Source of the DNA: a virus
Lineage: Duplodnaviria; Heunggongvirae; Uroviricota; Caudoviricetes
Virus record (IMG/VR): IMGVR_UViG_3300024268_000001
Strand: one strand, 5' to 3'
DNA: 64,000 nucleotides
Part shown: piece after piece, positions 14,635-62,812 of the stretch
Layout: each line of letters begins with the position of its first letter
Position numbering within the stretch: position 1 is the stretch's first letter
Notes under the pieces: model-generated
What the model was told of the DNA's origin: nothing
Databases searched by the model: none
Seen by the model: the letters and a program-made list of their open reading frames with translations, nothing else
Made by a program: the position numbers and the translations under genes

Positions 14635-15504
14635 TTATCGATTTTTTACAAAATCTAAAATATCCTTTTTAACTGATTCGTAGTAGTCATCCCAGATTTT
14701 CATAACTAAATTAATAGTTTTATCTGATACATCATCCATTTTTATCTTTTTTGTATAATTCGGAGATGCATTGAAAACATACTTATCGCCGAGAATGGCT
14801 TGTGCTTCATAAATTGGTGATTTTGAACTTCTTGCTACCCAATCTCCAATCATATATTCTGCCCATCCTAACAATGTTTTATTTCCATGTTCTGTATTTG
14901 GTGTATTCATTCCAGTATTAAAATTTAAAAGTTTAAGATTTCGATTGCCTTGTTTAAATTGACCAGCAATAACTATATCGGCAGGGTTATTTGCCCAACA
15001 GCCACCGTCCATATAAGAGTTTCCATCTTTTTCTATAACATCAAAATATGTAGGTGCTGCTGTTGATGTAAGTACAGCAAATGCCTTTGTTGTATCTTTA
15101 TCACCTAAATCCCACACTTTTTCTACAGAAGCACCATTCATAAATGTTGTTGTAATATAGATAGGTTTTTTCCAATCACTAACTTTACCTTTAAGTTTTT
15201 CTTCTAAAATTTTTTTAAGATTTGTATTATCATATGTTGGACACGTTGGTTTAAGTCGTTTATACCAGGAATTTTTTGTAAAAATTTTCTTTAAATTATC
15301 TTGGTATAATTTAAATATATCATGTGCACTCATACCTTCATTCATACATGCAGCAACTATTGAACCCGTAGAAGTACCAGTATATGCTGATACATAATCA
15401 CCTAATTTTTTACCTAGATCTTGTTCCAATCTGCACATAAATGCTAAAGGTCCCATAGCCAAGGCTCCACCACCTTCAATACTTAAACACAATTGTTTGC
15501 CCAT
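14635..15504 (-). CDS. patatin-like phospholipase
   Basis: Oxyanion-hole 'SIEGGGALAMG', nucleophile elbow 'GTSTG' and catalytic Asp motif 'YMDGGCWANNP'. Very AT-rich codon usage. RBS 'aggaga'. Confidence 0.8.
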   Translation of the reverse strand: MGKQLCLSIEGGGALAMGPLAFMCRLEQDLGKKLGDYVSAYTGTSTGSIVAACMNEGMSAHDIFKLYQDNLKKIFTKNSWYKRLKPTCPTYDNTNLKKILEEKLKGKVSDWKKPIYITTTFMNGASVEKVWDLGDKDTTKAFAVLTSTAAPTYFDVIEKDGNSYMDGGCWANNPADIVIAGQFKQGNRNLKLLNFNTGMNTPNTEHGNKTLLGWAEYMIGDWVARSSKSPIYEAQAILGDKYVFNASPNYTKKIKMDDVSDKTINLVMKIWDDYYESVKKDILDFVKNR

Positions 15505-17202: not shown

Positions 17203-17562
17203 TCATAAACCACGCGACGCTGAACTGGGGGCTTTCTTCATTTTTTCCTTATGTTCATTCATAAGTTTTTCAGCAAGTTCATATGACGGAATATAAGAAC
17301 CAACATCCCATGAAGCATCTTTTGAACAAATATGAGGTTTAGATTCTTCTTTCCAAATATGACTATCACGGTATCTTAAATATCGTTCCATATTATAGGT
17401 CAAGCGAAACCAATTCTTCGAACCGCTATTTATCTTACGATATTCAACAACAAACCATGACGGGTCTCTGTTTACAATACTTGGAGCAACATCAAAATCG
17501 AACGTCGGATATTCATATGTACCGAGTTCTATAATACGATATTCATAAAGCGATTTTTCCAT
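17203..17562 (-). CDS. hypothetical protein
   Basis: 119-aa ORF. ATGA-type junction with the ligase gene. Confidence 0.45.
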   Translation of the reverse strand: MEKSLYEYRIIELGTYEYPTFDFDVAPSIVNRDPSWFVVEYRKINSGSKNWFRLTYNMERYLRYRDSHIWKEESKPHICSKDASWDVGSYIPSYELAEKLMNEHKEKMKKAPSSASRGL

Positions 17563-18716
17563 TAGAACACATATCCTTCACGAGATTTACCGGTTGTAAC
17601 ATTACGCAAGATAGTCGGAATAATTTCACCAGCCTTCGTAATAATAACTTCATGACCGATTTCGATGCCCATATATTCAAGCATGTCAATATTGCACATA
17701 TTTGCACGCTGAACTGTAGTTCCGCAAAGTTCAACAGGTTCAACTACTGCAACCGGAGTCAAATTGCCATTCTTGATAGACCATTCAATGTTAATGAGCT
17801 TGGTCTGAGCAAGAGAATACTTCGGCTTGAGTGCAATCGAGAATTCCGGCAAATAATTGGTTTCAAGATCTTCATAATCAATCAAAGACGTCTTCCAAAC
17901 AAGACCGTCAATCTGATAATCACGTTCTTCATGCCAAATCTGGTCCATAAGAGCGACAGCCTTTTCACCGTTCATGGTTTTAAGGTCGTAAATCTTGTAG
18001 TCAACAACATCAAAACCCTGGTTTTTCATCCAATCAAGCATATCAGACTGAAGTCGGAAATGACGCTTGGTGTTAGAGGCATAGCGAGCTTCATAAACCT
18101 TGATATTAAGCTTTTCACAATCTGCACCGTCGAGATGCTTCATAATACCAGAAGCAGCATTTCGGCAGTTCTTATACTTCGGGAAATACTTTTCCTTAAC
18201 GGACTTGTAAAGCAAAATTTCGCCGCGAATAGTTCCTGTAAAATCCTTATCGACTTTCTTGACGAGACCATTCATCTTAAGAATATTATTGGTAATGTCG
18301 TCACCGTATGTACCATCACCACGGGTAGTACCCTGAACGAACTTTCCATCGACGTATTTAAGCGCAATAGAGCAGCCATCGAGCTTCAAAGGAGCAACGA
18401 CATATTCATGACCATTCATACGGCACTTATTGAACCAGACATCCATTTCTGGAGCCGTATTGGCCTTATTCTGAGAACCCATGATAATATCATGCTTGAC
18501 TTTTTCAAAACCTTCAGTATGGTCCTTACCAACTTCCTTCAAAACATCAGAATCAGGATATTTAGTCTTCAGTTCATCCCAGAGTGCATCAAATTCAATG
18601 TCGCTCATGATAGGAGAATCGGAATTATAATAGGCATCTTGTGCCTGACGGATTTTTGCTTCAAGTTCGTTCTTATTCATGTGATACAATATAGTAAAAA
18701 ATATAGGCTTTGTCAA
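17562..18716 (-). CDS. ligA: NAD-dependent DNA ligase (LigA adenylation + OB domains, short form without BRCT)
   Basis: N-terminal Ia-like 'DAYYNSDSPIMSDIEFDALWDEL'. Motif I 'PLKLDGCSIALKY'. 'TTRGDGTYGDDIT' matches LigA 'ATRGDGttGEDIT'. Confidence 0.8.
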   Translation of the reverse strand: MTKPIFFTILYHMNKNELEAKIRQAQDAYYNSDSPIMSDIEFDALWDELKTKYPDSDVLKEVGKDHTEGFEKVKHDIIMGSQNKANTAPEMDVWFNKCRMNGHEYVVAPLKLDGCSIALKYVDGKFVQGTTRGDGTYGDDITNNILKMNGLVKKVDKDFTGTIRGEILLYKSVKEKYFPKYKNCRNAASGIMKHLDGADCEKLNIKVYEARYASNTKRHFRLQSDMLDWMKNQGFDVVDYKIYDLKTMNGEKAVALMDQIWHEERDYQIDGLVWKTSLIDYEDLETNYLPEFSIALKPKYSLAQTKLINIEWSIKNGNLTPVAVVEPVELCGTTVQRANMCNIDMLEYMGIEIGHEVIITKAGEIIPTILRNVTTGKSREGYVF

Positions 18717-20893: not shown

Positions 20894-21322
20894 TTAATAA
20901 AGTTCTTTTGCAAAAAATTCTTTAGTAGCACTTTGCATAGCAACGGCTTTCCAATCCGATACAGTTTTGGTATTCATCCATTTATCCATATCATCAATCA
21001 TACATTGAGTTTTAGTCTTCAAACCAACAGACTTCAACAATTCACGTTGACGCCATTCATTAAAGTCTCGCTTTTTAGCATCTTGTTTTGCTCTGTATGC
21101 CAAAACCGCGGCTTCACCTTGTCTCTTTCGTCTTTCTCGTTTTTCTACACCAGTTTCCGTATCTGACAAAAGGTCATCGAATTCTTCAATCAGCTTTCCA
21201 AGCTTGTAATCTACACTATTTCGATAATCTTTTTGGAAAATGCATTCTAACATGCCTTGCATGTACAGAATAACAGCACCTATAAGAAGGACGCAAGCTG
21301 CAGAAATAATGATTGTTGCCAT
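20894..21322 (-). CDS. membrane protein (N-terminal TM)
   Basis: N-terminus 'MATIIISAACVLLIGAVILYM'. Confidence 0.5.
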   Translation of the reverse strand: MATIIISAACVLLIGAVILYMQGMLECIFQKDYRNSVDYKLGKLIEEFDDLLSDTETGVEKRERRKRQGEAAVLAYRAKQDAKKRDFNEWRQRELLKSVGLKTKTQCMIDDMDKWMNTKTVSDWKAVAMQSATKEFFAKELY

Positions 21323-21346
21323 GATGAACTCCTCTTGTTTATGTTC

Positions 21347-21386
21347 ATAATATAGAAAAAGGGCCGACTTTCGTCAACCCTTTATT
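21347..21386 (-). promoter_or_regulatory. conserved promoter/hairpin element, copy 2
   Basis: Plus strand reads cataatatagaaaaagggccGACTTTCGTCAAccctttatt. Confidence 0.5.
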
Positions 21387-21410
21387 ATTATAGGAGAAAA
21401 TATATACTTA

Positions 21411-23051
21411 TTAGCGACGACGGCGACGAGAAAGTTCAGCAATAACTGTCGGATCGTTCATCATGTCCGAAAGGCTACGTCCAATAGAAGTATTAGCTTC
21501 AGCCGGTTCCTTAGTCTTGTCAACATTCGGAGTTTCCGGACGAGCTTCAGCCTTAGGTTCATTTACGACTTCTGCTTCGGTCTTTTCAACCTTTGGAGCA
21601 CCGGAAACACCAGCGAGTCGGGCACCGAACATAGAACCGAGAACAGTCTTGAGGTCCATACCGAGAGAATCGGTCAAACCGCTAGAAATCTGAGTAAGCG
21701 TCTTGGTAATATCGCCGGTGAGCTTTGCAGTACCGCTTTCACCGTACATATTGATGTTACCAATCTTTTCCATCGGCTTAGCAACTGCACCAGCGATAGC
21801 CGGGAGCTGTTCGAAATACTTTTCAATAGTCTTGAGCTGCATTTCCTGACGAGCTGCATCACCATACTTCTTCATGGCTTCAGCCTTCTGGTCAAGAGCT
21901 GCTGCTTCTGCAAGACCCTTAGCCTTTACAGCATCAGCTTCAGCTTCACCCTTAGCCTTAGTAGCTGCAGCTTCAGCGAAAGCCTTTTCCTTATCAGCTT
22001 CAGCCTTGGCGATAATTGCCTTAGCTTGCTGCTGCTGGGTAAAGAGTGCTGCTTCAGCTTCCTTCTGCTGCTTATAAAGTTCAGCATCAGAACGCTGCAT
22101 CTGAGCCTGCTTATCGGCTTCAGCCTTCTTCTGAATTTCAGCTTCGAGTTCCTTCTGACGGACAGCTACCATGCGTTCACGAATTTCAATCTGCTTTTCC
22201 TGCTTTGCAACTTCTGCAGCTGCTGCAGTAATATTGATGGTCTTCTGCTGTTCCTGCTTCTGAATTTCATAAGCGGCATCAGCTTCGGCCTTCTTAGTAT
22301 CAGAAATTCGCTTAAGGTCAGCCTTCTTAACTTCGAGGTCGTTCTGCTTCTGAGCGATTTCAAGGTTTGCTGCAACCTGAGCATCGTTTGCTGTCTTCGC
22401 TGCTTCAGCCTGAGCAATCTTCACGTCACGTTCTGCATTTGCTCGAGAAATTGATGCAGCCTTCTGAATTGCTACAGCCTTATCAACACCGAGGTTTTCA
22501 ATTACCTTACCGTCGTCCGAGAAGTTCTGAATATTGAAGGTCTTAACGATAATACCGAGCTTTTCAAGATCTGGAATAGCATTTTCAAGAACCTTCTCAG
22601 AAACCTGCTTTCGGTCCGTAACCATGTCGACAAGATTCATCTGGCCGACAATCTCACGCATATTACCCTCAAGCACGTCAACAATCATCGCCTTAATCTG
22701 TTCAATCGGCTTATTGAGGAAGTTCTGGGCAGCTTTCTTAATTGCTTCAGGTTCATCAGAAATCTTTGCATTAACAACAGCGTCAACTGTTACATTAATG
22801 TAGTCCTTGGTCGGAACTGCCTGCTTAGTCTTGACGTCAATCGGAATCAACTTCAAGCTAAGAACGTCAGCACGTTCAAGGAACGGGATCTTGAAACCGG
22901 CATGCCCGATAATTGTTCGAAGCTGTCGGAAACCCGAAATAATAATTACTTCATCCGGCGCCGCCTTAATATAAGACGTAATGAAGAGGATAACGAGGAA
23001 AAGTACGAGCAGGCCGATACCCGCACCGATGAGGATATTTGAACTAAGCAT
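21411..23051 (-). CDS. flotillin-like SPFH/band-7 domain protein (YqiK-like)
   Basis: N-terminal TM. SPFH-like 'PDEVIIISGFRQLR...' region. Then a long Ala/Glu/Lys/Gln-rich coiled coil (AEAAKTANDAQVAANLEIAQKQNDLEV...). 546 aa. Confidence 0.75.
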   Translation of the reverse strand: MLSSNILIGAGIGLLVLFLVILFITSYIKAAPDEVIIISGFRQLRTIIGHAGFKIPFLERADVLSLKLIPIDVKTKQAVPTKDYINVTVDAVVNAKISDEPEAIKKAAQNFLNKPIEQIKAMIVDVLEGNMREIVGQMNLVDMVTDRKQVSEKVLENAIPDLEKLGIIVKTFNIQNFSDDGKVIENLGVDKAVAIQKAASISRANAERDVKIAQAEAAKTANDAQVAANLEIAQKQNDLEVKKADLKRISDTKKAEADAAYEIQKQEQQKTINITAAAAEVAKQEKQIEIRERMVAVRQKELEAEIQKKAEADKQAQMQRSDAELYKQQKEAEAALFTQQQQAKAIIAKAEADKEKAFAEAAATKAKGEAEADAVKAKGLAEAAALDQKAEAMKKYGDAARQEMQLKTIEKYFEQLPAIAGAVAKPMEKIGNINMYGESGTAKLTGDITKTLTQISSGLTDSLGMDLKTVLGSMFGARLAGVSGAPKVEKTEAEVVNEPKAEARPETPNVDKTKEPAEANTSIGRSLSDMMNDPTVIAELSRRRRR

Positions 23052-23090
23052 TTATGTTCCTTTTGTTATGTGTTTTTGTTTAGTTAAAAT

Positions 23091-23831
23091 CTAATCGTTC
23101 AGCCATGAGTTTTCCATTGCAATAAAGATACAACATATTACAATAATAACTATCGAGAAAATTATCCAGAAATACAATACTGTATGTTTCCAGCTAAAAT
23201 CCTCTACTGCTTGATCGATTTTTACATTGTCACGATATTCTGCATCATTCATTCGATGATTATCGATATTTGCATATACCGTTCCAGTAAAACTTAATGG
23301 GCGACAATAATAAACATATCGTTTATTATGTGCGAAATTGATTGTCTTTACATAATGACCGCTTGGCAATTCCGGAAACTGACCGTAGTAAAAGTCTTTC
23401 TTAATAAAATTAACTTTATCTACATTCCAGTCTTTTGCTCCATGATAGTCCCATGTCCAATAGACCTTAGTATGACAGCTACGTGTCTTTCCAGAACCAG
23501 TACAAACAAGCTTCGTATGCATCGTATAGACCTCGAGCACTCGATGGACTGACATATACTTACCTGGCAAACCGTCGTCTGTAACACTGCCTATCGCGGA
23601 AACAGTTCCGTATGCCAAAGTATGCCCAGCATTAGTATTGAATGCATATTGAAACTGTGTAGAATCGTTATCGATTTTCACAGCCTGATTGTACTTCGCA
23701 TTATGGTCATCTTGCCAAAGATCCATCCTATTACCTACGTAGAAACCTACTGCTAGGGAAATAAGAGCGAATACAAGCGCTACAATAACTTCACGCTGAG
23801 TTACTTCAATATTGGTATCACCAATATACAT
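23091..23831 (-). CDS. membrane protein (TM near both termini)
   Basis: 'VIVALVFALISLAVGFYV' near the N-terminus and 'VLYFWIIFSIVIIVICCIFIAM' near the C-terminus. Confidence 0.5.
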   Translation of the reverse strand: MYIGDTNIEVTQREVIVALVFALISLAVGFYVGNRMDLWQDDHNAKYNQAVKIDNDSTQFQYAFNTNAGHTLAYGTVSAIGSVTDDGLPGKYMSVHRVLEVYTMHTKLVCTGSGKTRSCHTKVYWTWDYHGAKDWNVDKVNFIKKDFYYGQFPELPSGHYVKTINFAHNKRYVYYCRPLSFTGTVYANIDNHRMNDAEYRDNVKIDQAVEDFSWKHTVLYFWIIFSIVIIVICCIFIAMENSWLND

Positions 23832-24388
23832 TAATTCTTTTCCTTAAGAAGTCCTGTGGGTGCGTCTACTGGCGCATTTGCAAATTCAAGAACCTTATAG
23901 TCCTTTTCCTGATAACCTAGAATACTCAAACAGATGTTTGACGGGAACATACGAACATGCTGATGATATTCGGTTACATTTTTATTATAATACTTACGAT
24001 GCGACGCAATTCGATTTTCAGTCATGGATAATTCATTCATGTACTGCTTATAATTTTCTATTGAACGCAATTCTGGATAACGTTCTACAACACCACGGAT
24101 ATATGCAGAAGCATTAACATTTCCGTTGCCTTCTGCTGGTGTACGAGCCTGTGATAGCTGTACCAAAACTTCGGCTTCATGCTTGTTATACGACATTACT
24201 GCTTCTGCCAAGTTAACAAGCAAGCCTGCACGTCGATTATATTCGGTGTTCAAATCGCTCAAAGAACTTTCAATGAGCAATTCCTTTGCGATTGCCTTAT
24301 TTTGTGAGCTTTGTACGCCAAACACTGTGGCGATAATCAATGCTACAATAATAGCAAGACTTGAAATTAAGACTGTTACGGGTTTCAT
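23831..24388 (-). CDS. lemA: LemA family protein
   Basis: N-terminal TM. 'EYNRRAGLLVNLAEAVMSYNKHEAEVLVQLSQAR' and 'TENRIASHRKYYNKNVTEYHQHVRMFPSNI' match the LemA family pattern. Confidence 0.65.
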   Translation of the reverse strand: MKPVTVLISSLAIIVALIIATVFGVQSSQNKAIAKELLIESSLSDLNTEYNRRAGLLVNLAEAVMSYNKHEAEVLVQLSQARTPAEGNGNVNASAYIRGVVERYPELRSIENYKQYMNELSMTENRIASHRKYYNKNVTEYHQHVRMFPSNICLSILGYQEKDYKVLEFANAPVDAPTGLLKEKN

Positions 24389-24400
24389 TGGTTTCTCCTA

Positions 24401-24913
24401 TTAGTTGTTATTTAAAAGCTTGGAAATGTCTTCAACGATCTTGGCTGTATCAAGTTCATTGACCGGCGGGTTATTTTTGCCTAAAAGTGTGTCTTCATTT
24501 CCTATATACTGGTAATCCCATGTAATAGACTTACCATCACTAGTTTCTAACATGGGAACAAGAACATGATAAATACCCTTATAGTTCTTATTCTTTTCAT
24601 TAAGCTGGTTTAAAATCTTATTTGCTGCGTTTTTAACAATTTTACTACGCATTTGAATACGGTCTGATTCAAATATCTTATTCAAAGAATCATTATAAGC
24701 CCAGAAACGTAATCTTTCATACCTAAACCATTCAACAACGTTAGGACCGTAATTTTCTCGCATATACGCTTCCATAGTCGGCGTAGTATCTGATTTTTCA
24801 GAAGTTCTTGAATTCAAAAGTTTTTCATAATGGTCAATATAAGCCTTAGCCGTAAGTCGATTGACCAAAACAGTCCATGCTACCAATAAACAAACAATAA
24901 TGACCGCTGCCAT
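24401..24913 (-). CDS. membrane-anchored protein
   Basis: N-terminus 'MAAVIIVCLLVAWTVLV'. RBS 'ggaga'. Downstream of promoter element copy 3. Confidence 0.5.
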   Translation of the reverse strand: MAAVIIVCLLVAWTVLVNRLTAKAYIDHYEKLLNSRTSEKSDTTPTMEAYMRENYGPNVVEWFRYERLRFWAYNDSLNKIFESDRIQMRSKIVKNAANKILNQLNEKNKNYKGIYHVLVPMLETSDGKSITWDYQYIGNEDTLLGKNNPPVNELDTAKIVEDISKLLNNN

Positions 24914-35900: not shown

Positions 35901-35970
35901 ATCATATTTATAAGTATAAAAAGAGCATAGAACTTTTCATCTATGCTCTTAAACTTAAAATTTATAGTTG

Positions 35971-37122
35971 TTAGGCTACATTGTCTCGTTTTACGAAAAT
36001 GGTAAATCCAAGGAAACCAATAAAATAGAGAAGTGCCAAAACAAGATATAAAGTATTGTCAGTAAACAAGTTTCCAAGAATAGGTCCCGCAATTCCAGCA
36101 AATCCCCAGGCACTAAGCGTCATAGAGTGAACTGTAGAAAGACAACTATCTCCGAATCTCTTAGCAAGTAAACTTGGCAAACAACTGAATCCTCCGCCGT
36201 AGTTCCATTCAATCATCAAAATACCAGCTACAAGCAAAATCGGATTTTGTGTATAACACAAAAACGCACCAAGAATACCCAAACTTGCAACCCAATGATA
36301 AGCAGCCTTTCTACCAATCGAATCACTAGCCGTACTCATTCCAAATCGACCACCGACATTTGCAACAGCTGTAGCAGCCATAAGTGAAGCGATAGCAGTA
36401 TATCCAGCATTTAAAAACAGGCTCTTTTCCTGAGAAATAAGTGCAAGGCCGCATGTAATGTTGATAAAGAACATAAACCAAATCGAAATATATTCTTTAG
36501 TCAAAAATTTGGCCTTTATAAGAGTCTTATACGGAATAGCAGTATATTTTGTAGAAATATATGCAGGATTAGGTTTATATAGCCATGAAGAGAAACTCAT
36601 TACAACTAAGAAAATCAATCCCATGAGTAAGAATACAACTGGCAACGTAAAGGTTGCAAGCAAATACTCAATCATAGGAGCCGCAACGAACTTTCCCAAT
36701 CCGAAACCGGTAATAGCCAATCCGGAAGCGAGTCCTTTATGATTACTGAAGTTTGCAAGCAGCTGTTTAATTGGTGCCGTATAGCCTATGCCGGTACCGC
36801 AACCCATAAATGAACAGCCGATATAATAAAGTGGTAAAAATCCAGTATAGGTTGCAAACGAAAGTAGCAATAATCCTATTGCAAACAGAATTGTTGAAAC
36901 TATCGCCATTCGTTTCGGGAACATTTCAACGAATCTTCCGAAAACCGCAGCACCCATGCCAAGGAAGAAAATAATCAGAGTAAATCCAATATCAGCTGAG
37001 AATTTCGAAATATCAAAAGTCTCCATGATATTCTTGGCATATTGTGAATAGTTATAAACTGAACCTAAACTGACAGGTAACAAAATACCCGGAATTAAAA
37101 TATTGAGAAATCTATTTGTCAT
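35971..37122 (-). CDS. MFS-type transporter (about 12 TM)
   Basis: 383 aa. Hydrophobic helices are spaced regularly throughout (e.g. LNILIPGILLPVSLGSVY, GFTLIIFFLGMGAAVFG, LVLALLYFIGFLGFTIFV). Confidence 0.7.
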   Translation of the reverse strand: MTNRFLNILIPGILLPVSLGSVYNYSQYAKNIMETFDISKFSADIGFTLIIFFLGMGAAVFGRFVEMFPKRMAIVSTILFAIGLLLLSFATYTGFLPLYYIGCSFMGCGTGIGYTAPIKQLLANFSNHKGLASGLAITGFGLGKFVAAPMIEYLLATFTLPVVFLLMGLIFLVVMSFSSWLYKPNPAYISTKYTAIPYKTLIKAKFLTKEYISIWFMFFINITCGLALISQEKSLFLNAGYTAIASLMAATAVANVGGRFGMSTASDSIGRKAAYHWVASLGILGAFLCYTQNPILLVAGILMIEWNYGGGFSCLPSLLAKRFGDSCLSTVHSMTLSAWGFAGIAGPILGNLFTDNTLYLVLALLYFIGFLGFTIFVKRDNVA

Positions 37123-37123: not shown

Positions 37124-37498
37124 TTAATTGAATGCCGTAGTAATAGGGTCTTTGAATACTTCCTTGAATTCGTGTTTGAGTTTCATATTGAAATGCCAAT
37201 ATGGGTCGAATAATGGATCCGTATTTTCAATCAATCCGATAGTATCAGATTCTTCCTTTGGAATGTCCCATGAAATATCAAATATTCCATTATCAAGAAC
37301 ATTTAAAGTAAACTTTATATTCGGACAAGTACCATCCCGGTCAAATATATGACCGAAAATACCAGCAATATCTTCAGTAATGAAATTGCTAGGTGGTTTG
37401 ATAAGTAATTTGTATACGCCTGTTCTGAATTTTATATTATTATCATCTATCTTGTCACGCCAAGTAGATGAATATGTTGAATCATATGTCATTTTCAC
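37124..37498 (-). CDS. hypothetical protein
   Basis: 124-aa ORF. Coupled to the methyltransferase C-fragment. Confidence 0.45.
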   Translation of the reverse strand: MKMTYDSTYSSTWRDKIDDNNIKFRTGVYKLLIKPPSNFITEDIAGIFGHIFDRDGTCPNIKFTLNVLDNGIFDISWDIPKEESDTIGLIENTDPLFDPYWHFNMKLKHEFKEVFKDPITTAFN

Positions 37499-38274
37499 CT
37501 CGTCTTATAACCAAAGGGCAACATTTCGTCCTTTATAAATTCTTTATATTTATACAGTCCGATTTCTTCAATTACCCAATTTTCATCGACGGGTTTAGTA
37601 AAGTCAAAAACAGGAATACAGTCATATTTCGTATGCTGATTAAACTTATAGAGGTAGTTTAAGAACATAGCAATATCAGTATTGCAATAATCTATAAAAT
37701 TTTTGCACTCATCTACCGTAGCAAATCCGATATACTGATTTTTGAGTTTTAAGGCACTTTCGGGGACGTTTTGAACTGGAGTATATCTTTCCTTGGACAA
37801 AAGCGTACACCAGTCCCAGGCTCGTCTATGGCCTCTTATATCGCTTAATTGGATATACCAGGTATTCTTCTTTCCCTGTTCGGTTCCAATAGTCTTTTTT
37901 CCAACCAGATATGCATCTACAATCTTCGTAATTTCCTTATATTTCTCAGGATCCGAAAATCTGTTAAATCGTAAATCATAGAGGTCAAGTTTCTTTTGGT
38001 CAAACTTGAAAATACCTACATCCGAGAAAAATTCAGCATCTTCAAACTTTGCATCACCGACAACGGTTTCAATACGGCTAAAAGACTCAAATCTTTCATT
38101 GAGAATTTCGATATGCTTATTGTTGATATTTTCCTTAATACGATGATTGTCTACAAAATCAGTAGGTACAAGCCAAACGGCGGAATCTGCGAATTTCTCA
38201 CATTCCGACATTACTTTTAAATAAAGCTTTTCGCCTTTACCGATATATGGTGGATTTCCGATTATTGTAAACAT
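37495..38274 (-). CDS. N6-adenine (or N4-C) DNA methyltransferase, C-terminal fragment (motif IV + target-recognition region)
   Basis: Begins 'MFTIIGNPPYIGKG', which is catalytic motif IV (NPPY). The rest is a TRD-like region. Confidence 0.7.
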   Translation of the reverse strand: MFTIIGNPPYIGKGEKLYLKVMSECEKFADSAVWLVPTDFVDNHRIKENINNKHIEILNERFESFSRIETVVGDAKFEDAEFFSDVGIFKFDQKKLDLYDLRFNRFSDPEKYKEITKIVDAYLVGKKTIGTEQGKKNTWYIQLSDIRGHRRAWDWCTLLSKERYTPVQNVPESALKLKNQYIGFATVDECKNFIDYCNTDIAMFLNYLYKFNQHTKYDCIPVFDFTKPVDENWVIEEIGLYKYKEFIKDEMLPFGYKTR

Positions 38275-38663
38275 AGAAGGTCACGTTCAGCTTGTAGATT
38301 AGAAATAACTTTTAAAAAATCTCCGTCGTTATTTATTGTAATGGTCCAATCCTTACCGCTAACTACGTCGCCGTGCAAAAATTTGACATCACAAGAACTC
38401 GGTTGAATACTGAAAACTTTATCATCATATTTTTCTTGACTTTCATAGATGGCTTTAAATTTCTTTGAACAAAAACCAACACCAGAATATAAATTCGGGG
38501 CTTTAAATAAACCATAACAACATGGCAATCTTCCAAGGTTACTACTATAGTCCTGGCTTGAGAAATAACAGACTCTATCTATTAAATCGGAAGTAACAGA
38601 ATGTTTAATTGTCTTATCATTTCGAACAATCGAGAATTTAATCTTTTTCTTAAACCAAAGCAA
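38262..38663 (-). CDS. small protein, member of a 3-gene paralog insert
   Basis: '...LHGDVVSGKDWTITINNDGDFLKVISNLQAERDLL'. Compare the 38650 and 38975 products. Confidence 0.5.
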   Translation of the reverse strand: MLWFKKKIKFSIVRNDKTIKHSVTSDLIDRVCYFSSQDYSSNLGRLPCCYGLFKAPNLYSGVGFCSKKFKAIYESQEKYDDKVFSIQPSSCDVKFLHGDVVSGKDWTITINNDGDFLKVISNLQAERDLLCLQ

Positions 38664-39045
38664 TTTCAGTCTCCAGGTTATAAATCAATTTTTCAAAACT
38701 AAATTGAGAATCTAATGTAATCGTCCAGTCATGGCATTTAACAGTATCGCCAAGCTTGAAACTCGCGCCACAATCATCAAGATTCTTATAGCTAGAGCCA
38801 AACATTACATCCTGATATTCTTCCGGGTACAATACCATGTATTTTGTAAATTCTTGATTATCATTAGTAAAACTTAATCGGGTATCGTCTTTTCGAGAAG
38901 AATTACAAAGGTAATATTTTCGTGTTTTACCGTTATGAACAATCTTTACTCTTAAAGTATTAGAACTATGTCTTCTACTGCAATACATATTCCATTTCCA
39001 AGTTGTTGAAGAGACGTTTAAAATCACCAGTAGTATTAAGTTCAA
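38650..39045 (-). CDS. small protein, member of a 3-gene paralog insert
   Basis: '...KLGDTVKCHDWTITLDSQFSFEKLIYNLETEIALV'. Confidence 0.5.
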   Translation of the reverse strand: MNLILLVILNVSSTTWKWNMYCSRRHSSNTLRVKIVHNGKTRKYYLCNSSRKDDTRLSFTNDNQEFTKYMVLYPEEYQDVMFGSSYKNLDDCGASFKLGDTVKCHDWTITLDSQFSFEKLIYNLETEIALV

Positions 39046-39433
39046 TAGTCCAGGTAGGAAATACTACCTTATCGCCACGTTTGAGAATATATGTTGCATC
39101 ACATGGATATACATGAGAACCATAATGTACACGTGTTTCAACTTCATCATGTTCAGACATATATCTTACACCAAATCCATAAATTTCTTCAGGTGTTGGA
39201 TTATGCAGCTGACCCATCGAAAGAATATCATAATATTGCGACATACTATCAAAACGTTGTGTCAAATCCGGCTTATATTTATCGCTGCTATAAATTGTAG
39301 TCTTAAACCAAGGCGCATATTCGAGACGACTTGAACGACCATTTCGAAAAACAGTAAATAAAACCGGTTTTTCATGTTTCACCGATTCTTTGGTTTCAGG
39401 CTCATCATAGATATGTTTATAATCTGTCAACAT
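38975..39433 (-). CDS. small protein, member of a 3-gene paralog insert
   Basis: '...LKRGDKVVFPTWTIELNTTGDFKRLFNNLEMEYVLQ'. Confidence 0.5.
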   Translation of the reverse strand: MLTDYKHIYDEPETKESVKHEKPVLFTVFRNGRSSRLEYAPWFKTTIYSSDKYKPDLTQRFDSMSQYYDILSMGQLHNPTPEEIYGFGVRYMSEHDEVETRVHYGSHVYPCDATYILKRGDKVVFPTWTIELNTTGDFKRLFNNLEMEYVLQ

Positions 39434-55596: not shown

Positions 55597-55923
55597 ATGA
55601 CAAAACCTAAGATTTTAATCTATCATTTTTCGTATGACCCAGAAGAGTTCGATATTGATAGGTTTAATGATTTCGTTATCAGAGAGAATTTGTCAACGGG
55701 TACAGCTTTAGCTGTACCGTTGACTTCTCCAAAATTACGTAGTATTAGGAACAGAATTGCATTTATTCCGCAAAGTCATTTTAATCATAAAGATGTATAT
55801 TTTATGATAGATGACGTAAAATATGAGTTTCCCGGTAAACCGCTTCATGAAATTTATAAAACAATGTCAGAAGCAATATATGAAAAAATAGTAGAATATA
55901 AGCTTTCGGTGTTAAATGGCTAA
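55597..55923 (+). CDS. small protein (family-related, plus-strand block gene 1)
   Basis: 108 aa. C-terminus '...EAIYEKIVEYKLSVLNG'. Confidence 0.5.
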   Translation: MTKPKILIYHFSYDPEEFDIDRFNDFVIRENLSTGTALAVPLTSPKLRSIRNRIAFIPQSHFNHKDVYFMIDDVKYEFPGKPLHEIYKTMSEAIYEKIVEYKLSVLNG

Positions 55924-56257
55924 TATAGTAGCGTTTAGATATACAGAAAAATACAAGCCACTTTTAGGTGGTAAAGAAATCCCAGTAAGTCAAATGAATT
56001 TCAATGACGAAATTCATGCATATTCCAATTTATATAAAGGATATACAACAGTCGCTTTTTGCGGTATAAAGAAATGGGCCGAGGCTGAATATACTCTTTA
56101 TTATTATGTCAAATGGTTTGCTACTGAAGAGATAAGATTGAGCTGGGACGATAATTGCTATGTCATTTATGATGGTGTCAAATATACTACTGTAGAAAAA
56201 CTGTATGCCGCGATAGAAAATAAGAAAAATCTAGCAATACTTGATACTTACCTATAA
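55916..56257 (+). CDS. small protein (family-related, '...KLYAAIENKKNLAILDTYL')
   Basis: 113 aa. 8-nt overlap with the upstream gene. Confidence 0.5.
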   Translation: MANIVAFRYTEKYKPLLGGKEIPVSQMNFNDEIHAYSNLYKGYTTVAFCGIKKWAEAEYTLYYYVKWFATEEIRLSWDDNCYVIYDGVKYTTVEKLYAAIENKKNLAILDTYL

Positions 56258-56260
56258 AAA

Positions 56261-56284
56261 ATGACGGACCGCCAGATCCGTCAT
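56261..56284. terminator. intrinsic terminator hairpin
   Basis: Hairpin atgacggaccgccagatccgtcat, with a T-run on the minus strand. Confidence 0.55.
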
Positions 56285-56335
56285 GAATTATCATATTGTT
56301 GAAACGTGTTCGACAAAGAACCAATATGATAAAAT

Positions 56336-56914
56336 TTAAATTGCGTCAGTACCAGAACGATTTTCGATAATCTTGAAGATTGCTTCAAGCTTCGGTTTTA
56401 AAGTTTCCTCTGCCTCGTCGAAATCTTCAGCCATATACGGAATCATTTCCTTGATGGCTTCTGTAACTTTAGCACGGATAGAATCCTCTTTTTCTATAAC
56501 TTCTGTTTCGCCCCAACCTGGGTCATAGGTTCCGAAATCACGTCCATCCCAGCTTGGTTCTTCGCCAGTATAGCGAACTTCGACTTCGATTGAATTACCG
56601 TCACCGCCTGTAGAATCATACTGCTCATCGAAATCCTTAACAAAACCAGGAAGGATCTCTTCGATTTTGGCGACTTCTTCCTTTGTAACGCCCAAGCGAC
56701 AAGTCAAATCAAAAGACTTCTTAAGCGGATTACCATGATAATCCAGCAATTTATCAATATAGATAGGAACTTTTACTGTGTCATCATTATAATGTTCACA
56801 GACATATCCGTTATTTTCCAAAATAATCAAAGATTCGCTTACTTTCATTATAACCTCATTTTTATTATTTATAGCATTGACGAAAAGTGAATCTCTTGCT
56901 ATATTTAGTAACAT
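56336..56914 (-). CDS. hypothetical acidic protein (192 aa)
   Basis: Lone minus-strand ORF between the two plus-strand blocks. Confidence 0.5.
   Translation of the reverse strand: MLLNIARDSLFVNAINNKNEVIMKVSESLIILENNGYVCEHYNDDTVKVPIYIDKLLDYHGNPLKKSFDLTCRLGVTKEEVAKIEEILPGFVKDFDEQYDSTGGDGNSIEVEVRYTGEEPSWDGRDFGTYDPGWGETEVIEKEDSIRAKVTEAIKEMIPYMAEDFDEAEETLKPKLEAIFKIIENRSGTDAI
56877..56905 (+). promoter_or_regulatory. sigma70-like promoter (TTGACG-N17-TATATT) for the array operon
   Basis: Sequence caTTGACGaaaagtgaatctcttgcTATATTtagtaacATG. The -35 region resembles the conserved GTTGACGAAAGT element. Confidence 0.55.
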
Positions 56915-57194
56915 GACACGAAATACGCAAAATACAATTTCAACTATCTGGATTTTTCTTGCATCATTCGTATTTACCTTTATGGTAGGCTGGATTGTTT
57001 ATGAAATGATTGAAAAATCTCCAGATATTGATTATACGAAGAGTTATAGTGTCGAAGAAGTACAGAAGCTTGTTGATGAAAAAGTTACTAATGTAACCTG
57101 TGGAGTAATCAATAATGAAATTCTGTGTATCTATACTAATCACAAAACTTCTCGTAATCCGGTATTTTGTACTGTTAAATGGAATGGTAAATAA
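56913..57194 (+). CDS. small membrane protein (1 TM), first gene of the array operon
   Basis: 'TISTIWIFLASFVFTFMVGWIVY'. The ORF-track start at 56877 is the TTG of the -35 hexamer. The ATG at 56913 is preferred. Confidence 0.5.
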   Translation: MTRNTQNTISTIWIFLASFVFTFMVGWIVYEMIEKSPDIDYTKSYSVEEVQKLVDEKVTNVTCGVINNEILCIYTNHKTSRNPVFCTVKWNGK

Positions 57195-57203
57195 AGGAAA
57201 ATC

Positions 57204-57491
57204 ATGGTACCTCTCAAATATACAATCGGAATTCTGGCAATTTATGTAGCCTTGTTCATAATTCTTGGTTTTATAAGTCTGCCGACACTTTTATTGGTGT
57301 TAGGTATAATGTTCGTTATTTCGACAATTATCTATGTTGTCATACTCATTGAAGAAAGGATTTGGACATATTCGCTTATCTGGGACAATCTTATTGGATA
57401 TGCCGCAATGGCCTACGGTATCGTATTCTTCCTTCTTCCGATTATCGTCCTTAATTGCATCGAAGACAGAATAGAACGTAACGAAAGATGA
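57204..57491 (+). CDS. small membrane protein (3 TM)
   Basis: 'IGILAIYVALFIILGFISLPTLLLVLGIMFVISTIIYVVILI' and 'GYAAMAYGIVFFLLPIIVL'. Confidence 0.55.
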   Translation: MVPLKYTIGILAIYVALFIILGFISLPTLLLVLGIMFVISTIIYVVILIEERIWTYSLIWDNLIGYAAMAYGIVFFLLPIIVLNCIEDRIERNER

Positions 57492-57492
57492 T

Positions 57493-57822
57493 ATGATTAA
57501 TGTTATTTTTACAAATGACGGATATACACAACAACATGATGTTGCTGAAATTGATAACGTCAATATAGACGAACATCCTAGTTTTGTAGAAGCATGTGAG
57601 CAAAAAGACATCGTTAATAATACCATGATAACTCTTACATGGAGATCTTCAGATTATCATGGATTATATGTTTTAAAGCTTGGAACATTTCCGCTTTATA
57701 AGGCATATTTAGAAATTGACGGAAAGAAATATATGTATACCGACATAATGAAAAATATTGAAAAATTCAAAGCCAGGATTGAACAGGAAAAAGTTAAACT
57801 TGCATTGGAGACATTAGCATGA
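57493..57822 (+). CDS. array family member 1 (conserved C-terminal helix)
   Basis: Ends '...YTDIMKNIEKFKARIEQEKVKLALETLA'. Its stop overlaps the next ATG. Confidence 0.6.
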   Translation: MINVIFTNDGYTQQHDVAEIDNVNIDEHPSFVEACEQKDIVNNTMITLTWRSSDYHGLYVLKLGTFPLYKAYLEIDGKKYMYTDIMKNIEKFKARIEQEKVKLALETLA

Positions 57823-58106
57823 TTAAGTTTACACTTGATGGTAGAAACTATGAAATCGAATCCATGCAAGATTTTTCTCTTTGGGTTCATTACGAATCAA
57901 AACATAGAAAACGAGAAAACTATATTAAAGCAGAAGTACGTCCTGTAGGTTATGAAGCACATCATGTTTTTGAACTGAGAAACGAAGATAGTATACAGAT
58001 TGACGATAAAAAGTTTGACCTTCCATATATTTGTGAACATTTTGATTTGATTAAATCTAAAATTTTACATAATCTTGAACTTAAATGCCTGGATAATTTA
58101 GCATGA
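57819..58106 (+). CDS. array family member 2
   Basis: Starts MIKF. Ends '...ICEHFDLIKSKILHNLELKCLDNLA'. Confidence 0.6.
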   Translation: MIKFTLDGRNYEIESMQDFSLWVHYESKHRKRENYIKAEVRPVGYEAHHVFELRNEDSIQIDDKKFDLPYICEHFDLIKSKILHNLELKCLDNLA

Positions 58107-58387
58107 TTAAACTTATTAGAGAATATCATTATTCGCGTTCAGATGACCATTATGTAGTAAAGCAACTGTTTGGTTTTGAAAAATCTAGTAATGGCATAAG
58201 TCTTTTCTTTGAAGACCAAATGGGAAAAAACCAAATGATAAATACAGCCGATACAGAAAAAACAGAAACAAAACTGTATATAAACGACATTCTTTATACA
58301 AACAAAGATATTATGTGGAAATTTGATAAAATTTCTGCACTGTTAACTCAAGATATAAATTTGACAGCTATTGAGTCTCTTCCATAG
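58103..58387 (+). CDS. array family member 3
   Basis: Starts MIKL. Ends '...KDIMWKFDKISALLTQDINLTAIESLP'. Confidence 0.6.
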   Translation: MIKLIREYHYSRSDDHYVVKQLFGFEKSSNGISLFFEDQMGKNQMINTADTEKTETKLYINDILYTNKDIMWKFDKISALLTQDINLTAIESLP

Positions 58388-58395
58388 AGGAATAT

Positions 58396-58764
58396 ATGGA
58401 TTTTGAAAAAATAAAGAAAAATGAATGTTTTTCGAAACAGATGATTCTGGATAATCCAAATCAGCCATATATTTTTAGATATGATAAATGGGATAATTAT
58501 GACCTGATTATACCAATAGAAACCAATGATTCTACTACCCATATACTTGGTGCGGTTTTCCATTATGAAGATGAAAATACATATTTATACAACGGTTGTT
58601 CTTATATAAATCTTCTCGGTGTAAATCTTAAGAGTATGAAATTGTTTACTCCGCAAAAAGAAATCGAATATGATGCATCTGTTGATGATTATCATGATTT
58701 TAGAGATAAAGTTATTATGGTGTTAAATCAATTCGAATCCATAGAGGCCGTGGATAGATTATGA
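58396..58764 (+). CDS. array family member 4
   Basis: Ends '...FRDKVIMVLNQFESIEAVDRL'. ATGA junction. Confidence 0.6.
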   Translation: MDFEKIKKNECFSKQMILDNPNQPYIFRYDKWDNYDLIIPIETNDSTTHILGAVFHYEDENTYLYNGCSYINLLGVNLKSMKLFTPQKEIEYDASVDDYHDFRDKVIMVLNQFESIEAVDRL

Positions 58765-59108
58765 AGTTCATTGTAAAAATCGGTAATAATATAGCCATAA
58801 CATATGAGATGATAGCTCTCGAAGGCATATTTATCGAAAGGCCGAGTACTAAATTTACAAATTCACAACAGGACATGATTGATTACAAAACAATCTATAT
58901 CCATTTTCATTATTCAAAGAGAAACAACCGCGAAGTACATGCCAATATAACTATGCCTATTGGTGAATTTCTTGACGGTAATAAAATGATGTATATAGAT
59001 GCTGGAAAAGAACAGATTTATTACAAAGATATTGTTGCAAATCCGGCAAAAGCAGCAGTCAGGATAAATAACCTCATTTTACTTGATACTATCGAGGCTT
59101 TGCCATAA
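58761..59108 (+). CDS. array family member 5
   Basis: Ends '...YYKDIVANPAKAAVRINNLILLDTIEALP'. Confidence 0.6.
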   Translation: MKFIVKIGNNIAITYEMIALEGIFIERPSTKFTNSQQDMIDYKTIYIHFHYSKRNNREVHANITMPIGEFLDGNKMMYIDAGKEQIYYKDIVANPAKAAVRINNLILLDTIEALP

Positions 59109-59118
59109 CAGTATTACT

Positions 59119-59406
59119 ATGTTAATAGAGCTTTATCCAAATAAAAAATATAGAGTGCCATCTAAAATTAAGCACGTCAATAAAATTGTTGCCGAAAAAA
59201 CGGAACCTCTTTCATTTATTGATTTTATAGATACAGATGATAAACCGCATATCATGGTTATCGGTACAGAATCTATAATAGTAGTTGACTATGGACCGGT
59301 TGAATTACCTTTAATATTTAGTTATAAAGATATATTAGAAAATCCGGAAGCTATTACAGCAAAACTACATAATTTAGAAAACGAAGCTGTACTTGACAGA
59401 TTATAG
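59119..59406 (+). CDS. array family member 6
   Basis: Start taken at ATG 59119 (MLIELYP...). Ends '...YKDILENPEAITAKLHNLENEAVLDRL'. Confidence 0.55.
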   Translation: MLIELYPNKKYRVPSKIKHVNKIVAEKTEPLSFIDFIDTDDKPHIMVIGTESIIVVDYGPVELPLIFSYKDILENPEAITAKLHNLENEAVLDRL

Positions 59407-59409
59407 CCA

Positions 59410-59438
59410 TTGACAAAAATGAGATTTTTTGCTATATT
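59410..59438 (+). promoter_or_regulatory. internal sigma70-like promoter (TTGACA-N17-TATATT)
   Basis: Sequence ccaTTGACAaaaatgagattttttgcTATATTaaaaccATG. Confidence 0.5.
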
Positions 59439-59444
59439 AAAACC

Positions 59445-59762
59445 ATGATTAGACTTATCATGGAATCAAAACCTCATGAACAATGGGAACAGCATAGGCA
59501 GTTTAAAGTAAAATCTGCCGTTCTTATTAAGCAAAAAACTCATAGTCAATATGAGTCGGATTTGATTGTCCAATATACGTCGTTTAATAATAGTTCTTAT
59601 AATAGTTATGGATTTGAAGCTCAATTTGAAAAAGAAACGCATAGATTATTGCTTGAAATCGGCGGCGAAGTTTACGGGCATGATGATTTGATTAAAAACG
59701 TCGATAAGTATAATGCATTGCTGGAAAACGAAGCTATAAAAGAAGCAATAGACAGATTATGA
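59445..59762 (+). CDS. array family member 7
   Basis: Starts MIRL. Ends '...HDDLIKNVDKYNALLENEAIKEAIDRL'. Confidence 0.6.
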   Translation: MIRLIMESKPHEQWEQHRQFKVKSAVLIKQKTHSQYESDLIVQYTSFNNSSYNSYGFEAQFEKETHRLLLEIGGEVYGHDDLIKNVDKYNALLENEAIKEAIDRL

Positions 59763-60055
59763 TTCGAATAATATACAGACAATATAATGAAAAAACCAAG
59801 AAATGGGAAATGAATTTAGCATTTCCCGTTTATCAAGCGGAATTGTCTGTTAATACTAATAAATTAATCGATATTAAATATAAAAATTATTACGGTCATG
59901 ATTTCTTAACAACATTCAAGAATTCTAATGATACACAGATGACGCTTGAATTTGATGATGAAGAATATAGTATTCTTGATATGATTAATAATTTTGATAA
60001 AGTAAAGTCAAAAGTTTATAACGAATACCTACATGATATTTTGGAAGCATTATGA
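59759..60055 (+). CDS. array family member 8
   Basis: Starts MIRI. Ends '...ILDMINNFDKVKSKVYNEYLHDILEAL'. Confidence 0.6.
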   Translation: MIRIIYRQYNEKTKKWEMNLAFPVYQAELSVNTNKLIDIKYKNYYGHDFLTTFKNSNDTQMTLEFDDEEYSILDMINNFDKVKSKVYNEYLHDILEAL

Positions 60056-60390
60056 TTAAAGTTGTCAGAAAAATGACATATGATAATGAACCCACGACCA
60101 CGACATTTTATGTTCTTGGTCCTTATGTTTTTCGTACAGTAGTAAGTTCTAGACAATATATTTGTTTAGGCTATACTGATATTAAAAGAGAAATTAAAGA
60201 GCCGTATGAACATAAACCAAATTATTTTATTTTAGGAATTGTTACCAATTCCTCAGGTAAAAATTATAATACATGGCTTGAAACAGACGCTGGCACGTTT
60301 ACTGACCAATATATAGATAAACATCTGGATAAAGTCAACGCTATATTGACTCAGGAATCCAACAAAGAAATTCTTGATTGCCTACCATGA
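60052..60390 (+). CDS. array family member 9
   Basis: Starts MIKV. Ends '...DKHLDKVNAILTQESNKEILDCLP'. Confidence 0.6.
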   Translation: MIKVVRKMTYDNEPTTTTFYVLGPYVFRTVVSSRQYICLGYTDIKREIKEPYEHKPNYFILGIVTNSSGKNYNTWLETDAGTFTDQYIDKHLDKVNAILTQESNKEILDCLP

Positions 60391-61003: not shown

Positions 61004-61005
61004 TA

Positions 61006-62298: not shown

Positions 62299-62302
62299 GG
62301 GT

Positions 62303-62330
62303 TGACAATTACTTTATCGTTTACTATATT
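62303..62330 (+). promoter_or_regulatory. near-consensus sigma70 promoter (TTGACA-N16-TATATT)
   Basis: Sequence ggGTTGACAattactttatcgtttacTATATT, followed by RBS 'aaaggaacaatc' and ATG 62357. Confidence 0.6.
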
Positions 62331-62800: not shown

Positions 62801-62812
62801 GGAGAAACTACC

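Follow-up and report, generated by a model that had tools for sequence, protein, structure and literature searches.

A twelve-helix transporter of the OFA/SfMCT group encoded by very large phages, and its possible link to formate

The closest described relatives of the protein considered here are two bacterial carriers of the major facilitator superfamily (MFS). SfMCT is an L-lactate/H+ symporter from Syntrophobacter fumaroxidans (PDB 6G9X/6HCL) that binds its carboxylate substrate through Y119, R280 (positioned by N276), Y331 and F335 (PMC6573034). OxlT is the oxalate:formate antiporter of Oxalobacter formigenes (PDB 8HPJ/8HPK; TCDB 2.A.1.11). Secondary transporters are rare in phage genomes and none of OFA/SfMCT type is found in deposited phage genomes, while a literature search gave nothing specific on formate carriers of the MFS or on OFA transporters of phages. 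Here we describe a gene for an MFS transporter at positions 35971..37122 (- strand) of a 64,000-nucleotide stretch of DNA from a virus of the Caudoviricetes (IMG/VR record IMGVR_UViG_3300024268_000001), the whole of which we call the window. The protein has an ordinary fold in an unusual place, and it belongs to an OFA-branch MFS subfamily that is recurrent and strongly conserved in many large-phage lineages and that may carry formate.

The gene is a single open reading frame (ORF) with an ATG start that encodes 383 amino acids. An initial annotation, made from the letters alone, had given it the same coordinates and had taken the product for an MFS transporter with about 12 evenly spaced hydrophobic helices, lodged among phage genes of consistent composition. 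The protein matches the Pfam family MFS_1 (PF07690) over residues 29-347 (E=4.2e-26, 92.1 bits against a gathering cut-off of 33.4), and an AlphaFold2 model (pLDDT 92.7, pTM 0.90), for which the input was an alignment of 30 sequences, shows 12 helices in 6+6 bundles. The predicted long helices of the first bundle span residues 4-36, 40-67, 69-93, 96-124, 126-157 and 160-181 and those of the second residues 209-238, 244-269, 271-290, 294-323, 328-352 and 355-376, with a short linker helix, predicted to be cytoplasmic, between the bundles at residues 198-206. The predicted inside loops contain 16 lysine and arginine residues compared to 1 in the outside loops, so an N-in/C-in topology fits. Motif-A-like loops lie between transmembrane helices (TM) 2 and 3 (GRFVEMFPKR, with E66, K70 and R71) and between TM8 and TM9 (SDSIGRK, with D267, R271 and K272), and both E66 and D267 are nearly invariant in the alignments. 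A hidden Markov model (HMM) score above threshold, two six-helix bundles with cytoplasmic termini and motif-A-like loops together identify the 383-residue protein as a 12-helix MFS transporter encoded by the phage, and on this the annotation was right. It is the sole polytopic membrane protein in the window.

Within the superfamily the protein lies beside OxlT and SfMCT. The only solved structures matched by sequence are SfMCT 6G9X (E=9e-13) and OxlT 8HPJ (E=4.6e-10), both aligned over their full length, and the top 11 Foldseek matches are likewise OxlT and SfMCT only (TM-score 0.84-0.88, E about 1e-14), followed by a second tier at about 1e-9 made up of FLVCR2, MCT8, MCT1 and MCT2. With OxlT and SfMCT as its closest solved structures and an invariant arginine in TM8 (R259), the protein has the structural marks of the OFA group. 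None of the curated family models is reached: the best named HMM, NF049980 for the SfMCT L-lactate transporter, gives 204.5 bits against a cut-off of 320 (E=1.9e-60), the OFA subfamily model TIGR00890 gives 132.8 against 374.85, the OxlT equivalog TIGR04259 70.4 against 335 and the SLC16 MCT model TIGR00892 17.2 against 586. Public records name the homologs ‘OFA family oxalate/formate antiporter-like’ despite the TIGR00890 miss, and a search of PHROGs gave only a weak match to a family of unknown function. The assignment to a transporter family that the initial annotation had left to be made therefore succeeds as OFA/SfMCT-like by structure and residues, while falling below every curated cut-off, and the protein belongs to an uncharacterised branch of this group.

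The substrate site gives a more detailed view of this relationship. In the place of Y119, N276, R280, Y331 and F335 of SfMCT the window protein has Y114, N255, R259, Y308 and F312, and none of the five varies in 119 members of the clade. Across the nine ligand-site positions of SfMCT (L28, Y119, L145, N276, R280, Y331, F335, F359 and C362) five are identical and four differ, being V22, F140, L336 and W339 in the window protein. The changes in the pocket signature relative to SfMCT are L145 to F140, Y355 to H332, F359 to L336 and C362 to W339; W339 and F140 are bulkier than their counterparts and L336 and H332 smaller, which would give a pocket that is tighter and more aromatic than that of SfMCT. 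A signature of nine positions (Y114, F140, N255, R259, Y308, F312, H332, L336 and W339), all present in the window protein, is invariant, with few single-sequence exceptions, in the 119 clade proteins, the 20 nearest outside relatives, 78 viral loci from every viral group and 79 bacterial genomes. As the signature is invariant across the subfamily, one substrate class is expected. OxlT has a second basic residue, K355 in TM11, where the window protein has the invariant W339; a dicarboxylate is therefore an unlikely substrate. Judged by these residues the protein is probably a carboxylate carrier with a single positive charge in the pocket, and neither an oxalate antiporter nor an SfMCT orthologue.

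Other key residues bear on coupling. The proton site in TM7 of SfMCT is not retained, as H250, R256 and D257 are replaced by Q231, L237 and N238, while the place of D378 of SfMCT (TM11) is ambiguous, being taken by D355 in the pairwise alignment and left empty in the multiple one. Only the window clade (at least 52% identity) has a glutamate, E305, at a position in TM10 about one helical turn away from Y308; other members have N, S or I there. Both this E305 and H332, which is invariant, could be candidates for proton coupling. K119 is invariant among phage members and variable among bacterial ones; with V22 and I137, these residues complete the set of key positions (V22, Y114, K119, I137, F140, N255, R259, E305, Y308, F312, H332, L336 and W339).

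The gene is resident in the phage genome. Its GC content of 0.378 (z=0.34) and its GC content at third codon positions of 0.315 (z=-0.08) are indistinguishable from those of its neighbours, as is its codon preference, which correlates with the rest of the window at 0.84 (other long genes average 0.81); contamination is rejected, and the consistent composition claimed at the outset is confirmed. The MFS gene is one of 81 ORFs, out of 108 in the window, that lie on the - strand, and its locus shows synteny with viral contigs in IMG/VR that range in size from 27 kb to 424 kb. One IMG/VR contig (L010) is 94-97% identical to the window at the nucleotide level over about 20 kb, and larger IMG/VR relatives measure 230, 415 and 424 kb, the 415-kb clade genome being IMGVR_UViG_3300028832_000001 (415,750 bp). 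Contigs as long as 431 kb hold more than 100 MFS homologs that are 70-96% identical, and on metagenomic contigs up to the same size the protein recurs, 92-96% identical, with UvsY, RNase H, dihydrofolate reductase (DHFR) and dCMP deaminase next to it. The window itself encodes a T4-type RNA ligase, an RNase H-type 5'-3' exonuclease, DHFR, dCMP deaminase and dUTPase, along with a CCA-adding/poly(A) polymerase-type enzyme, a flotillin/SPFH protein, LemA, an M16 peptidase and many ORFs that have no family match. The source is a very large T4-like phage of gut or rumen-type metagenomes, with the MFS gene in a nucleotide-metabolism region together with DHFR, dCMP deaminase and dUTPase. A search of deposited phages found no near-identical DNA, only six weak protein matches (at most 27% identity) and no cultured relative of the lineage; a tRNA search of the window, made for host inference, found none.

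Relatives of the protein are widespread in viruses. In a search of 1.84 billion representatives the window clade forms one cluster at 50% identity and the next relatives are at most 40% identical. The nearest outside relatives (P0124, P0128, P0129, P0131 and P0132) are on viral contigs (89-99% identity to IMG/VR loci) in phage-like contexts that include a T4 portal, gp25, NAD-dependent ligase, RtcB, T4_Y16D and many ORFans. Relatives whose identity runs without a break from 100% to 33% are encoded by at least 133 IMG/VR contigs, the longest of them 424 kb, and the GC content of the 78 analysed viral loci ranges from 26 to 56%. In a neighbour-joining tree, which is distance-based, carries no support values and is used only for this statement, the 41 leaves nearest the window protein are all viral. 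Bacterial members include Bifidobacterium, Leuconostoc, Veillonella and Megasphaera. No cellular protein in 185,579 species genomes is more than 39% identical, with one exception at 69%. This exception, in ‘Candidatus Coprovivens’, was rejected as a cellular gene, as its 28.5%-GC contig carries homologs of window genes and is phage.

Phage contigs that carry the MFS gene have been deposited in metagenome-assembled genomes (MAGs) labelled ‘Candidatus Coprovivens sp.’ (L107, JBJEXV010000017.1) and ‘Bacilli bacterium’ (L017/L018, HOC98189.1), and this contamination of MAGs makes the protein look bacterial in public databases. The labels were rejected as evidence for donor or host, the contigs being phage-like and rich in ORFans, and the binning is at best a weak hint of uncultured Bacilli as hosts.

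The gene is also kept under selection. Ratios of non-synonymous to synonymous substitution (dN/dS) within the clade are 0.05-0.14, leaving out the L028 pair, which is a frame-recovery artefact, and indicate strong purifying selection. In the 415-kb genome only the MFS gene and the 259-residue gene upstream of it match the window locally, while in relatives at 70-78% MFS protein identity the MFS gene alone is still alignable as DNA, and at about 70% identity it can be antiparallel to all its neighbours. The MFS gene is retained while its flanks change. The low dN/dS, this retention and the nucleotide-metabolism setting lead us to regard the gene as functional. With so many homologs and such a dN/dS, the ORF is well beyond anything that chance would give.

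Because the pocket is invariant, gene neighbourhoods anywhere in the subfamily are informative on substrate. To cluster the bacterial neighbourhoods we took three genes on either side of the MFS gene. Among the 145 genes directly flanking bacterial members the top families are FdhD/NarQ (8), MpsC (5), 2-hydroxyacid dehydrogenase (4) and molybdopterin oxidoreductase domains (4). A conserved cluster in Bacillales contains a protein of 790-990 residues (15 genomes), identified as formate dehydrogenase (FDH) alpha (TIGR01591, 844 bits against a cut-off of 666), a 267-residue protein (13 genomes), identified as FdhD (240 bits against 141), and a 130-residue protein (6 genomes). In a Clostridia MAG, genes for pyruvate formate-lyase (PFL; PF02901, E=8e-202), PFL activase and the MFS protein follow each other on one strand, an arrangement that resembles focA-pflB-pflA by analogy. 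A gene for a channel of the formate/nitrite transporter (FNT) family lies downstream of the MFS gene in phage L087, after a 28-bp gap, and in L009, 2.7 kb away. These loci (L087:7974-9887 and L009:8001-12603) come from putative huge phages on contigs of 162-351 kb that have two different organic-anion translocators side by side.

The most recurrent viral neighbour is the class III ribonucleotide reductase (RNR) NrdD (PF13597, up to E=2e-136, with ATP-cone and glycyl-radical domains), accompanied by its radical-SAM activase NrdG. Two gene orders occur, nrdD-nrdG-MFS with gaps of 0-40 bp (L084, L096, L090 and L086) and MFS-nrdD (L072-74 and L055), and when the viral MFS genes are grouped into lineages at 70% identity the linkage is seen in 7 of 24, or in 4 of 13 when they are grouped at 60%. 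The MFS gene also adjoins nrdD/nrdG in MAGs of Megamonas and Endomicrobiaceae. In class III RNR of the E. coli type the reductant is formate and the finger loop has a single cysteine, MGCR, while thioredoxin-dependent NrdD has SCCR without the methionine (bioRxiv 10.1101/2022.04.23.489257). The MGCR motif is present in MFS-linked NrdDs at 6 viral loci from 5 lineages (L084/L085, L096, L086, L091 and L055) and at 2 MAG loci (L108 and L179). The nrdD-linked loci are replication and nucleotide modules of large phages, with ThyX, dUTPase, topoisomerase II, ligases, Pol III alpha, DnaB and homing endonucleases. The only theme common to the formate-enzyme, nrdD and FNT contexts is formate, which is produced, oxidised, channelled or consumed there, and across the subfamily the genomic evidence appears to converge on formate.

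Several features of these neighbourhoods are recorded in their own right. The operons lie at L084:5087-9176, L096:5264-9179, L072:7989-12008 and L055:8001-12184; nrdD is broken up over 2-4 ORFs in L072 and L055, and the nrdD-MFS loci contain homing-endonuclease domains of the GIY-YIG and HNH types, which suggests interruptions of intron or intein type. In a phage lineage with an MFS protein 40% identical to that of the window (L007:6918-9206, on a 126-kb contig) a gap of 4 bp separates the start of the MFS gene from a preceding gene with a formyltransferase domain (Formyl_trans_N/C), and adenylosuccinate synthase is nearby, giving a one-carbon and purine context. MFS genes annotated as OxlT have been described beside cooS in Mitsuokella (PMC11338639). 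A bacterial locus (L019:6872-15679, SLH-domain, Negativicutes-like) has a same-pocket MFS gene that follows a gene of the AstE/AspA family and faces a cluster of D-Glu cyclase, 5-oxoprolinase (PxpABC) and biotin carboxylase; this neighbourhood does not fit the formate theme.

Since the pocket signature is invariant and same-pocket homologs are linked to formate enzymes, we read the protein, tentatively and at slightly less than an even chance, as a functional secondary transporter of formate, or of a small monocarboxylate, that forms a distinct OFA/SfMCT branch and is used to control the formate pool of the host. For the phage of the window, formate as substrate, the direction of transport, the coupling and the link to RNR are what we infer. 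On this reading the protein would be made by a huge T4-like phage, expressed from its early or nucleotide-metabolism region and inserted into the cytoplasmic membrane of the host during infection. Formate would be bound by R259 in TM8, positioned by N255, and by Y114, in a pocket narrowed by F140, W339, H332, Y308 and F312, and would be moved by a monomeric carrier through the usual rocker-switch cycle of the MFS. The carrier would then control the formate pool of the infected anaerobe, above all by uptake of external formate, which would feed formate-dependent RNR and one-carbon metabolism and so the synthesis of deoxynucleotides (dNTPs) and nucleotides in an anaerobic host. Formate is a one-carbon donor. 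The broader proposal, that large phages of the gut and rumen carry a carrier-type formate importer in their nucleotide-synthesis module to supply both the reductant of class III RNR and one-carbon units, is a possibility that we hold to be rather unlikely.

A number of points weigh against the formate reading. The evidence for formate as substrate consists of gene neighbourhood and pocket conservation, and the best HMM by name is that of an L-lactate transporter, although below its cut-off. Identity between the window protein and the formate-linked members is low, at 31-39%. In the window clade, nrdD, PFL, FDH and FNT are absent both from the 64-kb window and from the 8-10 kb around the MFS gene in relatives. 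The FDH clusters of Bacillales represent one phylogenetic group rather than 15 independent events, and most bacterial neighbourhoods, such as those in Bifidobacterium, Veillonella and Leuconostoc, are uninformative. The NrdD linked in L090 has the thioredoxin-type SCCR motif, and the NrdDs of L088 and L072 gave no clear motif. The clade-specific E305, finally, could mean an altered coupling or specificity.

The closest competing substrate is lactate, pyruvate or another short-chain monocarboxylate, transported with protons as in SfMCT and the SLC16 MCTs, which would either take up an external fermentation acid as a source of carbon or energy or, by exporting lactate during infection, keep glycolysis and pH homeostasis going. 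The rank of the SfMCT model among named HMMs, the five core carboxylate-binding residues held in common with SfMCT and the occurrence of bacterial members in lactate producers and consumers (Bifidobacterium, Leuconostoc, Veillonella and Megasphaera) all favour it, but the score is well under the equivalog cut-off, four pocket-lining positions that include the bulkier W339 and F140 differ from SfMCT and are invariant in the subfamily, and the proton-site residues H250, R256 and D257 have been exchanged. Apart from four neighbours with a 2-hydroxyacid dehydrogenase domain no lactate or pyruvate enzyme is enriched beside the members, whereas formate enzymes are, and we regard such a transporter as unlikely, if by no means negligible. 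The main alternative to a role in uptake is a FocA-like efflux, in which the carrier releases the formate made by host PFL when fermentation is driven hard, or serves pH or proton-motive force (PMF) homeostasis, instead of supplying phage enzymes. MFS carriers are reversible, and direction is not readable from sequence. The PFL, activase and MFS operon of the Clostridia MAG mirrors focA-pflB-pflA, and phage MFS genes are found beside FNT channel genes; linkage to cytoplasmic consumers of formate (the FdhA-type FDH of Bacillales and phage NrdD) is nevertheless commoner than linkage to PFL, and efflux seems to us distinctly improbable. A true oxalate2-/formate- antiporter like OxlT, generating PMF through decarboxylative exchange, would agree with OxlT being a co-best structural match (TM-score 0.86-0.87) and with the names given to the homologs in public records. 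This is very hard to sustain given the loss of K355, the low TIGR04259 score and enriched neighbours among which neither oxalyl-CoA decarboxylase nor formyl-CoA transferase is found.

The initial annotation had proposed nucleosides or NAD precursors as substrates and had raised co-occurrence with NadM. A protein that imported nucleosides, or NAD precursors such as nicotinate, itself a monocarboxylate, could serve the NadM-Nudix enzyme (9052-10170) and NAD-dependent ligase (17562-18716) that are both encoded in the window, and aromatic carboxylates are bound by SfMCT (titles of PDB 6ZGR and 6ZGS). NadM homologs do occur on the same large contigs as the MFS gene, a co-occurrence at the level of the lineage, but the two genes are far apart (about 26 kb in the window and roughly 65-80 kb in relatives for which both positions are known) and their identities are discordant: MFS at 95% accompanies NadM at 61% in the 415-kb genome, and MFS at 70% accompanies NadM at 83% in the 424-kb genome (compare also L101-L104 with L022-L027). 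Discordant divergence of this kind points to mosaic histories. NAD-dependent ligase directly adjoins the MFS gene in 7 viral loci from about 3 lineages, which we regard as shared membership of replication modules. The protein is of the OFA/SfMCT-like family, with the Arg/Asn carboxylate site in TM8, and not of nucleoside, NiaP or PnuC type; PnuC, NiaP and NupG/CNT types are absent among the Pfam, NCBIfam and PHROG matches, and by structure the protein stands next to carboxylate carriers. For NAD salvage in gastrointestinal jumbo phages the reported transporter is PnuC (PMC11662467), which fills this role there, while the same invariant pocket is found in FDH, PFL, NrdD and FNT contexts without NAD genes. 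The substrates first proposed are thus not supported, and we give them hardly any credence. We consider it equally far-fetched that the protein acts other than in transport, in superinfection exclusion, receptor masking or membrane remodelling, or that it is a contaminant from the host or from assembly. The flotillin/SPFH, LemA and patatin-like phospholipase genes of the window indicate that the phage remodels membranes, but such roles would not need a substrate site whose residues strong purifying selection has kept invariant. Bacterial MAGs do include some of the homolog contigs; against contamination stand the number of IMG/VR contigs that carry the gene, its synteny and composition, and the phage-like, ORFan-rich contexts of the binned contigs L107 and L017.

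If the formate assignment were true, it would provide a function for an MFS subfamily that is widespread in bacteria and whose present annotation goes no further than ‘oxalate/formate antiporter-like’. It would also define a new class of viral auxiliary metabolic gene, one that supplies a substrate for anaerobic dNTP synthesis, and would link the productivity of rumen and gut phages to a formate pool that also feeds methanogens. Under the broader proposal of an importer, phage DNA synthesis would be independent of formate production by the host and replication tied to interspecies cross-feeding of formate, and this would be the first MFS family, of the OFA branch, to be assigned as dedicated formate carriers, analogous to FocA.

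The immediate surroundings of the gene in the window were also analysed. A terminator-like hairpin on the - strand (35921..35950), with an 11-bp stem, an 8-nt loop and a T-rich tail, begins 21 nt past the MFS stop; it is a consensus match only, and suggests that the MFS gene is the end of a transcription unit. Four terminator-like sites were found in the region, compared to 1.6 +/- 1.5 expected from shuffles, and a promoter scan was not above the expectation from shuffled sequence. Upstream, a 124-residue ORF (37124..37498, - strand, GTG start, no family match) has a stop that ends 1 nt before the MFS ATG. The segment of about 365 bp that holds this ORF is absent from the syntenic relative L001 between the 259-residue gene and the MFS gene (L001:9993-10001), so it is a small insertion in the window genome; for the MFS gene it is context. 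The 259-residue ORF (37495..38274, - strand, no family match) is the next upstream neighbour and is kept upstream of the MFS gene in the close relatives L001 and L004 and in the 415-kb genome (L011/L012), but is absent beside the MFS gene in L005 (MFS at about 70% identity). A 421-residue gene on the opposite strand is inserted just downstream of the MFS gene in L001 and L004, with no counterpart in the window. Just upstream of the 259-residue gene, at 38262-39433, are three consecutive, slightly overlapping ORFs of 133, 131 and 152 residues that share the C-terminal motif GD.V....WTI.L......F..L..NLE.E and therefore appear as a tandem triplet of paralogs.

Elsewhere in the window, a run of membrane-associated genes at 20894-24913 includes a 546-residue SPFH/Band-7 and flotillin protein (21411-23051) and, downstream of it, several small proteins that each have one or two hydrophobic stretches; a flotillin is unusual in a phage. 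A patatin-like phospholipase (PF01734, E=5e-20) is encoded at 14635-15504, and two separate genes for Cpn10, the GroES-like co-chaperonin, occur in the same 64 kb as the PolyA_pol/CCA-adding-type nucleotidyltransferase. At 55597-63399 there is a strand switch to about 20 short ORFs (95-130 residues) packed head to tail on the + strand with a GC content of about 30%; GC skew and AT skew change sign in this block, which differs from the rest of the window in both composition and architecture. A related phage with a 70% identical MFS protein (L005:1043-6138, and L006) encodes a GH10 xylanase, which in L006 has a CBM6, an SLT lytic transglycosylase and a Thg1-like tRNA-His guanylyltransferase.

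How the window protein compares with known systems depends on the level at which they are set side by side. Among viruses, the MFS proteins of eukaryotic giant viruses (Orpheovirus, Indivirus and Pandoravirus) found in BFVD share the fold (TM-score up to 0.79), with no phage protein among the MFS-fold matches there, but they are at most 14% identical, come from viruses of eukaryotes and are not of OFA type. PnuC, the nicotinamide-riboside transporter of NAD-jumbo phages, is likewise a secondary or facilitative transporter that serves as an auxiliary metabolic gene of huge gut phages; it differs in belonging to another protein family with another substrate and in clustering with nadR/nadM, whereas no NAD genes cluster with the MFS gene. 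Among cellular carriers, SfMCT shares the 12-TM MFS fold, a full-length alignment and the five carboxylate-site residues at an identity of only 22-23%, and unlike SfMCT the window protein is phage-encoded and has relatives linked to formate enzymes rather than to lactate metabolism. OxlT, with the TM8 arginine R272 in the place of R259 and with formate among its substrates, matches the structure equally well and has a second basic residue where the phage protein has tryptophan. The FocA/FNT channels (Pfam PF01226) are unrelated in fold and mechanism, being pentameric channels where the window protein would be a monomeric 12-TM carrier; the likeness is one of analogy only, in the proposed function of formate translocation and in the kinds of genomic partners that the two have in common.

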